A stretch of 64,000 nt of DNA, taken from the IMG/VR virus record IMGVR_UViG_3300023174_000053, positions 107,028 to 171,027 of that record. One strand, 5' to 3'. The notes beneath the pieces are model-generated. The model worked only from the letters and a program-made list of their open reading frames with translations, made no database searches and was not told the origin of the DNA. Made by a program: the position numbers and the translations under genes. The DNA is from a virus. Positions 61,943 through 64,000 of this stretch are shown here, piece by piece. Numbering within the stretch: the stretch's first letter is position 1; each line of letters opens with the position of its first letter.

Positions 61943-62281
61943 CTACAACTGTTCTTCAATTACATCTGCGATTTGTTCAAAGGTATATGCATTATCATTA
62001 AGATTCGCAAAAGTTCTTGCATTAATATCAAGTAGATTATGATTTGGAATACCAGACCATTCTACCACAGAAAGAGGAAGATCTGCCACCCCATCTTGAA
62101 AAACATAAACATTGTCATCATATCTTGAAGGTTCCCATTCTAAGTTGTTCTCTTTGATATAAAGATCACAAAGAACTCCTAGACAACAGAACCCATATTC
62201 GTCGTGAAGATGACGTTGAGTTTGCTTATATTCACCAGACCGAAGGGCACTAACCCATTTTTGTTTGATTTGAGGATTCAT
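61943..62281 (-). CDS. conserved phage protein, tandem paralog 2
   Basis: W..ALRSGEYKQ....L.....FCCLGVLCD ...LND....F..IA..IE. Confidence 0.8.
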   Translation of the reverse strand: MNPQIKQKWVSALRSGEYKQTQRHLHDEYGFCCLGVLCDLYIKENNLEWEPSRYDDNVYVFQDGVADLPLSVVEWSGIPNHNLLDINARTFANLNDNAYTFEQIADVIEEQL

Positions 62282-62289
62282 AAGGATTT

Positions 62290-62631
62290 CTACAACTGTT
62301 CTTCAATCAGATTTGCGATTTCAATAAAGGTGCTTCCAGCATCATTAAGTCCCGTAAGAGTTGATTTTCCGACATTAACATGTGGATTATAATCTTCCAG
62401 ATCTGCCCATTCTACCACAGAGAGAGGAAGAGATGCCACCATATCTTGGAACATATAAACATTACCATTATGCCTTGAAGATTCCCATTCTAACTGATTT
62501 TCTTTCCCATAAAGGTCACAAAGAACTCCTAGGCAACAGAAACCATCTTCGTCGCGAAGACGACGTTGAGTTTGCTTATATTCACCAGACCGAAGGGCAT
62601 AAACCCATTTTTGTTTGATTTGAGGATTCAT
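62290..62631 (-). CDS. conserved phage protein, tandem paralog 1
   Basis: Same motifs; identical first 10 aa and C-terminal IEEQL. Confidence 0.8.
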   Translation of the reverse strand: MNPQIKQKWVYALRSGEYKQTQRRLRDEDGFCCLGVLCDLYGKENQLEWESSRHNGNVYMFQDMVASLPLSVVEWADLEDYNPHVNVGKSTLTGLNDAGSTFIEIANLIEEQL

Positions 62632-62704
62632 AAAAGTTTCAGGTGGTTATGAAGTCATTATAGTGTATTTTTAGAGATATTGGTGTTCCTCTTGTGCCAG
62701 TTCG

Positions 62705-63065: not shown

Positions 63066-63326
63066 TCACCTCCTACGAGTTCTTGTGGATATTGTAGCAC
63101 AACCATATCCACCTCCATAACCATAACCATATCCACCTCCATAAGCATCACCATATCCATAACCATAACCATCACCAGACCCATCCCCATCACCATCTCC
63201 ATATTCATCACCATCACCAAATCCATTACCATATCCATCACCAAATCCATTACCATATCCATCACCAAATCCATATGTATAACCATATACATTACCACAA
63301 CCAACGGGATAAAGGAATTCAGTCAT
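63066..63326 (-). CDS. Gly/Tyr-rich microprotein, array unit 4
   Basis: MTEFLYPVG-(GY core)-CATISTRTRRR; AGGAGG RBS. Confidence 0.75.
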   Translation of the reverse strand: MTEFLYPVGCGNVYGYTYGFGDGYGNGFGDGYGNGFGDGDEYGDGDGDGSGDGYGYGYGDAYGGGYGYGYGGGYGCATISTRTRRR

Positions 63327-63328
63327 TT

Positions 63329-63676
63329 CTAGTGCCTCCTACGAGTTGTTGTTGATGTTGATATTGTGGCATCACCATACCCATAACCATATTCATCACC
63401 ATTGCCATATCCATAACCATATCCATCACCATTGCCATATCCATTACGATAACCATATCCATCACCATACCCATAACCATATCCATTACCATACCCATCA
63501 CCACAACCATATCCATAACCATAACCACAACCATAACCATATCCACCACCATACCCATTACCATAACCATAACCATAACCATATCCATCACCATACCCAT
63601 TACCATTACCATAACCATATCCATCACAATATCCATTACCATACCCATTACCAATGGGATAAAAGTATTCAGTCAT
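63329..63676 (-). CDS. Gly/Tyr-rich microprotein, array unit 3
   Basis: MTEYFYPIG-(GY core)-DATISTSTTTRRRH; AGGAGG RBS before the ATG at 63676. Confidence 0.75.
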   Translation of the reverse strand: MTEYFYPIGNGYGNGYCDGYGYGNGNGYGDGYGYGYGYGNGYGGGYGYGCGYGYGYGCGDGYGNGYGYGYGDGYGYRNGYGNGDGYGYGYGNGDEYGYGYGDATISTSTTTRRRH

Positions 63677-63678
63677 TT

Positions 63679-63921
63679 TTACCACCTCCTACGAGTTCTT
63701 GTGGATATTGTGGCATAACCACGTCCATATCCATTACCATATCCATCACCATATCCAACACCGTATCCACCATATCCAGAACCAGATTGATAACCAGATT
63801 TATAATAACTAACAAGTCCATAACCATCACAATCACCATATCCATAACTATTTAAATCACCGTCACCATTGCCATATCCATTACCATAACCATCACCAAC
63901 GGGATAAAAGTATTCAGTCAT
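63679..63921 (-). CDS. Gly/Tyr-rich microprotein, array unit 2
   Basis: MTEYFYPVG-(GY core)-YATISTRTRRRW; AGGAGG RBS. Confidence 0.75.
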   Translation of the reverse strand: MTEYFYPVGDGYGNGYGNGDGDLNSYGYGDCDGYGLVSYYKSGYQSGSGYGGYGVGYGDGYGNGYGRGYATISTRTRRRW

Positions 63922-63923
63922 TT

Positions 63924-63998
63924 CTAGTGCCTCCTACGAGTTCTTGTGGATATTGTAGCACAACCATATCCATCACCATAACCATAACCATAACCATC
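63924..63998 (-). CDS. Gly/Tyr-rich microprotein, array unit 1 (3' end only, truncated by window)
   Basis: Manual translation ...DGYGYGYGYGDGYGCATISTRTRRRH*. Confidence 0.7.
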   Translation of the reverse strand, partial: DGYGYGYGDGYGCATISTRTRRRH

Positions 63999-64000
63999 AC

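Follow-up and report, generated by a model that had tools for sequence, protein, structure and literature searches.

The region that we examined, a window of 64,000 nucleotides (positions 107,028 to 171,027 of IMG/VR record IMGVR_UViG_3300023174_000053), is the last 64 kb of a 171-kb contig from an uncultured T4-like cyanomyovirus, and it ends in a tandem array of at least four small genes on the minus strand that encode glycine- and tyrosine-rich (Gly-Tyr) proteins. The first of these, unit 0 (64000-63924), is cut by the contig end and is represented by its C-terminal 25 codons plus stop (ending in GCATISTRTRRRH, or more fully DGYGYGYGDGYGCATISTRTRRRH, before the stop codon). It is followed by unit 1 (63921-63679; 80 amino acids; MTEYFYPVG...ATISTRTRRRW), which has the least regular core, unit 2 (63676-63329; 115 amino acids; MTEYFYPIG...DATISTSTTTRRRH) and unit 3 (63326-63066; 86 amino acids; MTEFLYPVGC...CATISTRTRRR), which is the last of the array and corresponds by position to the last unit of a related locus, L001. 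Each stop codon is separated from the next ATG by 2 nt, and the AGGAGG Shine-Dalgarno sequence formed by the last two arginine codons of each unit (63930-63935, 63685-63690, 63335-63340 and 63069-63074) always lies 8 nt before the next ATG. The last of these serves an unrelated 56-amino-acid gene (63060-62890, minus strand; MHNKFAVV...), which is translationally coupled to unit 3 but which we rejected as a member of the gene cassette described below because about 19 syntenic contigs carry it without the array. The four junctions align with 47 invariant columns out of 84 positions, and the tail of unit 2 carries an in-frame 6-nt insertion that gives ISTSTTT in place of ISTRT. The motif occurs nowhere else in the 171-kb genome. 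A 169-amino-acid histidine-rich open reading frame on the plus strand (63346-63855) and the VMDM-type frames are open only because of the repeat composition. The array reported in the earlier note is therefore real in every described detail, although the note did not state that it lies on the minus strand; because the end of the window is the end of the contig, its count of at least four units is correct as a lower bound.

To find related arrays, we first used the units themselves as queries. A tblastn search of a unit against 50,697 phage records gave no match because of the low-complexity filter, and a search with the unit alignment matched 596 pattern stretches, none of which was confirmed by tblastn. 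Searches of the units against Pfam, PHROGs, NCBIfam and PADLOC gave only low-complexity noise far below cut-off, such as TrAA12 and a serine-rich protein, and a protein search with the unit profile returned mostly unrelated Gly-Tyr-rich proteins (DUF7666 and TIGR02996 tails), with only two clear relatives (P0080 and P0066). We therefore used degenerate DNA patterns. The same architecture occurs in more than 20 independent contigs, showing that it is more than chance. Of 49 units parsed in about 20 contigs, 48 keep an open Gly-Tyr frame from the ATG to the tail; one unit in L001 is frameshifted. Tail codons vary synonymously while the residues stay fixed (Ile ATA/ATT/ATC; Thr ACT/ACC/ACG; Arg7 CGT/CGA/CGC/AGG/AGA; Arg8 AGG/CGG/AGA; Arg9 AGG/AGA/CGA), and the leader behaves in the same way. 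This pattern shows selection on the protein and not only on the ribosome-binding site; absence of leader and tail conservation in other phages, or of synonymous variation, had been set beforehand as grounds for rejecting the family.

Each unit comprises a short N-terminal motif (M-T-E-Y/F-F/L-Y-P-V/I-G), a hypervariable, acidic (Gly-X)n core and a basic tail (T-I-S-T-R-T-R-R-R). The core is 48% Gly, 21% Tyr, 10% Asp, 7% Ser and 6% Asn, and X is Tyr in 41%, Asp in 20%, Asn in 13%, Ser in 12% and Phe in 7% of cases. The cores have a pI of about 4.1-4.9 and a net charge of -2 to -10, with basic residues almost confined to the tail. In loci L022-L025, L028, L052 and L055, all 23 units have odd lengths, which means whole Gly-X steps, and many units keep a perfect alternate-Gly register over 41-81 residues. 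An AlphaFold2 model of a Gly-Tyr unit had a pLDDT of 33 and no secondary structure, and the unit is predicted to be fully disordered, although such predictions are unreliable for repeats of this kind.

We next asked what lies upstream of the array, where this contig ends. In all 6 contigs found through the leader motif, the array is directly preceded by a gene of 105-116 amino acids whose model has an Sm/LSm-like barrel (the barrel gene). Conversely, one to seven Gly-Tyr genes follow the barrel gene in 19 of 21 IMG/VR loci, and Gly-Tyr genes also follow it in 3 of 3 divergent metagenome contigs, in 17 of 17 assessable bacterial-genome loci, in L052, L055 and L056, and in the cultured Rheinheimera phage Barba (gp018/gp017). 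Because the barrel gene is not on this contig, its presence in this phage, just beyond a break that short-read assembly made inside the array, is inferred from relatives. In the cyanophage clade, a conserved hairpin plus T-tract, with compensatory stem changes in 6-7 loci, separates the barrel gene from the array, and a promoter-like site lies upstream of the barrel gene in most of them, so the array should be transcribed by read-through. Copy number differs between relatives, from 1 to 7 units. L052 has 3 units, whereas L055 has an identical barrel gene but units 1 and 2 recombined into one, although this could be an assembly collapse rather than a real variant. Array size and unit length appear to change by unequal recombination and by 6-nt slippage.

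The AlphaFold2 model of the barrel protein had a pLDDT of 78 (about 90 over residues 31-116) and showed a bent five-stranded antiparallel beta-barrel. The top hits of two fold searches were almost entirely Sm/LSm proteins: the best Foldseek hit was 3BY7 (E 8e-3), and VIA-align gave Z 7.9 to Lsm (rmsd 2.0 over 63 residues) and Z 7.1 to 3BY7. As a Z below 8 can reflect a common arrangement, this shows the fold and not homology. The barrel protein had no Pfam, NCBIfam or PDB sequence match, and neither Sm1/Sm2 sequence motifs nor a match to any LSM or Hfq family was found. In BFVD, the model matched the Barba protein at 2.7e-6 and DUF6948 proteins at 1.3e-3 to 2e-3, and the nearest Atlas clusters carry DUF6948 (PF22253) in 13-91% of their members. 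However, 0 of 35 family members scanned reached the 27-bit gathering threshold of the DUF6948 profile, two divergent members scored about 15 bits, and the profile found nothing in 5 cassette-bearing records at E up to 10; the barrel protein thus looks like a distant sister family of DUF6948 rather than a proven member. A tblastn search with the cyanophage-type barrel protein found no cultured phage, and one with a more central family member found only the Barba group (E 6e-3). The leader (YFYPVG) resembles the N-terminal arm of the barrel protein (TYAPVG) in the cyanophage clade, but this does not persist in distant clades and we do not rely on it.

These results place the array as amplified copies of the second gene of a conserved two-gene phage cassette. 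The pair in Barba, annotated only as hypothetical, has the same gene order and a (Gly-X)n gene rich in Tyr, Asp and Asn. Here, by contrast, gene 2 is amplified to at least four units (up to 6-7 in relatives) chained through a Shine-Dalgarno sequence within the RRR codons, and the cyanophage clade has a sharply conserved nonapeptide leader, a TISTRTRRR tail that Barba gp017 lacks, and the terminator-like hairpin between the genes. We found no paper on the cassette in the literature that we could search. Small Sm-like folds of unknown or RNA-related function are encoded by other T4-like phages or cyanophages, as exemplified by 3BY7, but identity to the barrel protein is only 13-16%, no sequence-level relation was found, and none of these proteins is reported with a Gly-Tyr partner. 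Sm-type barrels are also associated with glycine-rich, aromatic- or Arg-containing disordered segments in the Arg-Gly tails of eukaryotic SmD1, SmD3, SmB and LSm4 and in Acinetobacter Hfq, which has GGFGGQ repeats; in the phage cassette the low-complexity part is one or several separate genes, is acidic and tyrosine-rich, and its partner has no sequence homology to Sm/LSm/Hfq. Like the prion-like domains of FUS and hnRNP proteins with [G/S]Y[G/S] motifs, the Gly-Tyr proteins carry these motifs and combine Gly spacers, many Tyr residues and an Arg cluster with predicted disorder, but, unlike those domains, which have few charges, they are strongly acidic, and they differ in their strict dipeptide periodicity, 10% Asp with a strong net negative charge, length of only 31-126 amino acids and bacterial-virus context, with no homology.

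The interpretation offered in the earlier note is partly supported. Its proposals of a diversified and amplified protein family, translationally chained units and a Tyr/Arg low-complexity composition hold, and the leader and tail are conserved in other phages, whereas a peptidase or modifying enzyme beyond the window, which it expected, is not supported, as the upstream neighbour in every relative has no enzyme signature. Its description of the DNA as repeat-spacer-like is only a visual analogy, and its condensate, amyloid and decoy ideas remain conjecture. The data establish the coupled genes, their composition, their place as gene 2 of the cassette and the modelled fold of the partner; how the cassette works, including oligomerization, RNA binding and self-assembly, is inference. 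Tentatively, we propose that the barrel protein oligomerizes like other Sm-fold proteins, which form rings, and acts as a hub on which, or on RNA, the conserved ends of the Gly-Tyr proteins dock. Tyr and Arg numbers govern phase separation of FUS-type proteins, and in this view multivalent Tyr-Arg and Tyr-Tyr contacts would build a gel-, condensate- or fibril-like assembly in the infected cell, early in infection, with amplification raising dose and valency. Several features weigh against this model. The barrel protein is mildly acidic (pI mostly 5-6.5), which is unusual for an RNA-binding Sm or Hfq protein and gives no support for RNA binding, and the negative charge of the cores would oppose self-association unless neutralized. 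The basic tail is not universal, and the hairpin between the two genes argues against a simple 1:1 complex. A bolder version, a minimal, phage-encoded scaffold-and-client system in which a ring of the Sm-like protein nucleates a condensate or gel built from Tyr/Arg-sticker Gly-X proteins, whose material state and size are tuned over evolutionary time by hexamer slippage and gene amplification, and which many unrelated phages use early in infection to compartmentalize RNA or to exclude host factors, is not excluded but seems unlikely.

Other explanations appear less likely. The acidic, tyrosine-studded chains might be an anti-defence or host-takeover decoy that mimics nucleic acid or a substrate and soaks up a host sensor, nuclease, RNA-binding protein or Tyr/Arg-directed enzyme, with the barrel protein as chaperone or adaptor. 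The location among small early or accessory genes, the absence from most syntenic relatives, the rapid diversification and copy-number change typical of arms-race genes, the strong acidity and the occurrence in phages and prophages of many phyla fit this idea. However, DNA mimics such as Ocr and ArdA are folded rather than Gly-X repeats, no target is known, and there was no match to PADLOC or any named anti-defence family, which is weak evidence because that library holds defence systems. The artefact reading, that the region is a misassembly or an untranslated hexanucleotide repeat, could draw on the contig ending in the repeat, on the breaks at the same place in most contigs carrying the partner gene, and on all frames being open, but it is contradicted by the same gene structure in dozens of independent assemblies, a cultured phage and bacterial genomes, and by the conserved start, stop and Shine-Dalgarno sequences and synonymous codon pattern.

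It is also unlikely that the units are RiPP precursors with Y-G-D, Y-G-N and F-G-D triplets cross-linked into three-residue cyclophanes (triceptide type) or otherwise modified by a host or distant phage enzyme, the leader and tail serving as recognition sequences. Such triplets are abundant (YGD 119, YGN 98, FGD 39 and FGN 7 across 46 units) and fit the motifs modified by YxdB and OscB (PMC11002830), and a looser relative, P0001, scored 23.4 bits on TIGR04260 (GrrA/OscA1), below the 31-bit cut-off. However, the window units did not match this profile at E up to 10, the phage's own genome has no radical SAM gene (PF04055), and no CxxxCxxC open reading frame of 200 amino acids or more occurs in 45 cassette loci totalling 327 kb. 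A related phage, G001, does carry an rSAM/SPASM enzyme, but we rejected it as the maturase because it is 46 kb away, sits next to its own Cys-rich 68-amino-acid peptide and is absent from this genome. The leader is only 9 amino acids, the constant partner is a barrel protein rather than an enzyme, and the spread across phages of many phyla makes a single host enzyme unlikely. The strict (Gly-X)n register and the Tyr content would suit a silk-like material, in which beta-sheet fibrils with one all-Gly face, as in fibroin GAGAGY blocks, perhaps cross-linked through Tyr, serve as an intracellular or post-lysis fibre, or a peptide like the Gly/Tyr-rich antimicrobial peptides of animals. The high negative charge, the absence of a signal peptide, the lack of predicted secondary structure and the location away from the virion gene block make this doubtful. 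Finally, a tandem array of variable small proteins with a constant N terminus of about 10 amino acids in a T4-like phage resembles the loci of T4 internal proteins, which are packaged with the aid of a capsid-targeting sequence, and the constant nonapeptide might act in the same way in packaged internal or ejected proteins, but the leader MTEYFYPVG has no (L/I)-x-E site of the kind cut by the T4 prohead protease, an acidic core is ill-suited to packing beside DNA, and the cassette also occurs in small, non-T4-like phages and prophages, such as a 38-kb record with terminal repeats and a RecT-type module, so packaging seems improbable.

The partner gene has 3,731 clusters at 90% identity and 328 at 50% identity, and loci lie on contigs labelled as Chloroflexota, Planctomycetota, Proteobacteria, Verrucomicrobiota and Actinomycetota, among others. 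Neither gene of the pair has a usable family annotation, and a full-text literature search returned no paper that mentions DUF6948. The pair is under-seen because short-read assemblies break in the repeat: most contigs carrying the partner gene are about 1 kb and end within about 130 nt downstream of it. Phage Barba and its host, Rheinheimera sp. BAL341, make the function directly testable. If the two proteins act together as proposed, the cassette would be a compact, genetically tunable example of low-complexity protein assembly in bacterial viruses, and an independent parallel to the eukaryotic link between Sm proteins and Gly-rich low-complexity tails; if it is instead a decoy, it would be a new class of anti-defence protein.

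We first read the region directly to establish whether the repeat-like stretch encodes proteins. The genes described in the earlier note are present, on the minus strand. A unit cut by the window end lies at 64000-63924 and ends ...CATISTRTRRRH*, and complete units lie at 63921-63679 (80 aa), 63676-63329 (115 aa) and 63326-63066 (86 aa). Each complete unit begins MTE[YF][FL]YP[VI]G and ends ATIST(R/STT)TRRR plus zero or one residue. Stop and next ATG are 2 nt apart, and the last two Arg codons form AGGAGG exactly 8 nt before the next ATG. The same junction couples the last unit to an unrelated 56-aa gene (63060-62890). The four junctions align with 47 invariant columns out of 84 positions, and their one length difference is an in-frame 6-nt insertion. 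The window is the last 64 kb of a single 171,027-bp contig with 33.7% GC, so the 'at least four' of the earlier note is all that this contig can say. The other end of the contig, at positions 1-200 and outside the window, also lies in a tandem repeat, of about 96 nt period, inside a large structural-type ORF, and both contig ends are therefore repeat-induced assembly breaks. The Gly-Tyr motif occurs nowhere else in the genome. PHROG matches to large terminase, baseplate wedge, tail sheath stabiliser and head closure proteins identify the genome as that of a T4-like myovirus.

Just downstream of the array, two tandem paralogous genes of 112 and 113 aa (MNPQIKQKWV...SGEYKQTQ...CCLGVLCDLY) lie at 61943-62281 and 62290-62631 on the minus strand, and neither matches a Pfam family. 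Each is preceded by a recurrent motif, CACTTGAc-N3-AACTGGCACAAG, which occurs at 62702 and 61942 of the window (minus strand) and also about 90 nt upstream of the barrel gene discussed below in five related loci (L027, L030, L033, L052 and L035). The motif lies about 36-40 nt upstream of a TATAAT box in front of small early-type genes, and it may be an upstream element of early promoters in this phage lineage. On the opposite strand it shows up as repeated 'LVPVRQV' pseudo-ORFs.

Next, we searched for the family elsewhere. Protein-based searches failed on the low-complexity sequence, but degenerate DNA patterns for the junction and the leader found the same architecture in six IMG/VR contigs. 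These arrays hold 2 to 6 units of 31-105 aa, the two-unit array (contig L022) being cut by its contig end. Each unit consists of M[TA][ED]YFYPVG, then (Gly-X)n, then [TS]I[ST]TRTRRR plus one variable residue, and gaps between units are 1-2 nt. Across 40 units the tail residues are fixed while the codons vary: Ile uses ATA, ATT or ATC, Thr uses ACT, ACC or ACG, and the three Arg positions use CGT/CGA/CGC/AGG/AGA, AGG/CGG/AGA and AGG/AGA/CGA. The leader behaves the same way. This is selection on the protein, not only on the ribosome-binding site, so the grounds that the earlier note had set out for rejecting its own reading do not hold. Of 49 parsed units, only one is frameshifted, the first unit of the related array on contig L001 (L001:8000-8311). 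It is frameshifted once inside its core, the rest still reads as Gly-Tyr and ends in the ...ATISTSTTTRRRH tail in the other frame, and the shifted frame stops at the TGA overlapping the next ATG. This unit is either a recent pseudogene or a sequencing error.

To find out what lies beyond the window, we examined the sequence preceding the array in these relatives. In all six contigs the array is directly preceded by a 105-116 aa gene, which is not on the contig studied here. Searching with that protein gave 21 IMG/VR loci, of which 19 have one to seven Gly-Tyr genes right after it. The two exceptions are an identical pair (L039 and L040), in which about 700 bp of ORF-poor DNA (L039:5243-5950) follows instead; this could be a degraded array or an RNA element. 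More divergent members show the same arrangement: three metagenome contigs that end within about 130 nt, already inside a Gly-Tyr ORF; a 176-kb contig, L052, and its relatives; and all 17 assessable loci in bacterial genomes and MAGs of several phyla. In the wider family the ends relax, the N-terminus becoming M-x-[RK]-P-[IV]-G and the tail becoming G-T-[VI]-[ST]... followed by basic residues. Among deposited phage genomes only the cultured Rheinheimera phage Barba group matches. There gp018 (104 aa) is followed 3 nt later by gp017 (69 aa), a Gly-Tyr/Asn/Asp repeat protein without a basic tail. The partner family is large, with 328 clusters at 50% identity and 3,731 at 90%, and most members sit on contigs of about 1 kb, which fits assemblies breaking in the repeat. 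About 19 contigs syntenic for the downstream 56-aa gene lack the array. In cyanomyoviruses the cassette is therefore an accessory insertion.

No Pfam, NCBIfam, PHROG, PADLOC or PDB sequence match to the partner protein is significant. An AlphaFold2 model built from 15 homologues has a mean pLDDT of 78, and about 90 over residues 31-116. In a structure search with this model, archaeal and spliceosomal Sm/LSm chains follow the best hit at E about 1e-2, and an independent all-against-all alignment gives Lsm proteins at Z 7.9-6 for nearly all of the first 35 rows. Among viral models the closest are uncultured-phage proteins (7.7e-9), the Barba protein (2.7e-6), an Eggerthella phage protein and then DUF6948 proteins at about 1e-3. 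Atlas neighbours are partly DUF6948. However, the DUF6948 HMM itself does not reach threshold on any member tested, the best being two hits of about 15 bits against a 27-bit cut-off. We therefore call it a protein with an Sm-like barrel model and a probable distant sister of DUF6948, rather than a member. It is mildly acidic, which gives no support for RNA binding. One metagenomic homologue of 153 aa (P0144) carries a short Gly-rich (Gly-X)n segment (...SPVGNGNGSGSGSGYGYGYGYGS...) fused N-terminal to the barrel domain, which could be a natural fusion in reversed order or a gene-calling artefact.

The core composition of the Gly-Tyr proteins is G 48%, Y 21%, D 10%, S 7%, N 6% and F 3%, and in G-X-G triplets X is Y 41%, D 20%, N 13%, S 12% and F 7%. 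The pI is mostly 4.1-4.9, with basic residues almost confined to the tail. AlphaFold2 gives pLDDT 33 and no secondary structure. Many units keep a perfect alternate-Gly register, and all 23 units of seven arrays have odd lengths, so length changes come in 6-nt steps. Copy number also appears to vary. L052 has three units (101, 85 and 75 aa), whereas L055, which has an identical partner gene, has units 1 and 2 fused at a shared stretch into one 75-aa unit. This is either unequal recombination in the population or an assembly collapse.

In the cyanophage clade, a promoter-like site lies upstream of the partner gene in most loci, with a -10 box, TATAAT or TATACT, about 30 nt before the ATG. Between the partner gene and the first unit there is always a GC-rich hairpin followed by a T-tract, and the stem sequences differ between loci but stay paired. 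No room is left for a promoter before the first unit's Shine-Dalgarno sequence. These features, all of them inferred from sequence, suggest that the array should be transcribed by read-through and translated as a chain.

Together, these data establish a conserved two-gene cassette, with selection on the ends of a hypervariable, acidic, Tyr-rich protein that is predicted to be disordered, and amplification of the gene for that protein here. That the two products act together is an inference from sequence and predicted structure, as are expression, oligomerisation and binding. We favour a hub-and-client assembly, in which the barrel protein would form an oligomeric hub and the Gly-Tyr chains would be multivalent clients whose Tyr residues and Arg cluster would give the contacts known to drive assembly of FUS-type proteins. 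We are confident of the identity of the cassette but regard the mechanism as doubtful, and our confidence in the explanation as a whole, which reflects both, falls slightly short of even.

Among the alternatives, a decoy or anti-defence role is the least unlikely, although we consider it improbable. Silk-like fibres and RiPP precursors are each less likely still, followed by packaged internal proteins, and an artefact is very unlikely. The interpretation offered in the earlier note, which saw a diversified, amplified peptide family that might be condensate-forming, a decoy or the substrate of a modifying enzyme encoded beyond the window, is partly supported. The RiPP idea has one point in its favour, as the Y-G-D/N triplets fit the triceptide motifs, but it fails on the other defining features. 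There is no TIGR04260 match, no radical SAM gene in the genome and no CxxxCxxC ORF of 200 aa or more in 327 kb of cassette flanks, and the only rSAM/SPASM enzyme seen, in the related phage G001, has its own Cys-rich peptide and lies 46 kb away. On the related phage contig IMGVR_UViG_3300032236_001180 (L051), a 465-aa radical SAM/SPASM enzyme (L051:1285-2682) follows a Cys-rich 68-aa ORF (L051:286-492) and a 263-aa ORF. Its SPASM domain scores above cut-off, and its nearest families are RiPP maturases such as CcpM and PapB, all far below cut-off. This is a candidate phage-borne Cys-rich RiPP cluster, and it is absent from the window's genome.

A search of the accessible literature found no paper that mentions DUF6948, and a search for work linking phage glycine-tyrosine low-complexity proteins with Sm-like proteins returned nothing relevant. 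The T4 LSm-like paper (PMC12152347) reports no such partner. What is new in this case is the T4-like cyanophage clade of the cassette, the amplification of its second gene into a Shine-Dalgarno-chained array, the sharply conserved leader and tail with codon-level evidence of selection, the conserved hairpin between the two genes, and apparent copy-number variation in a population.
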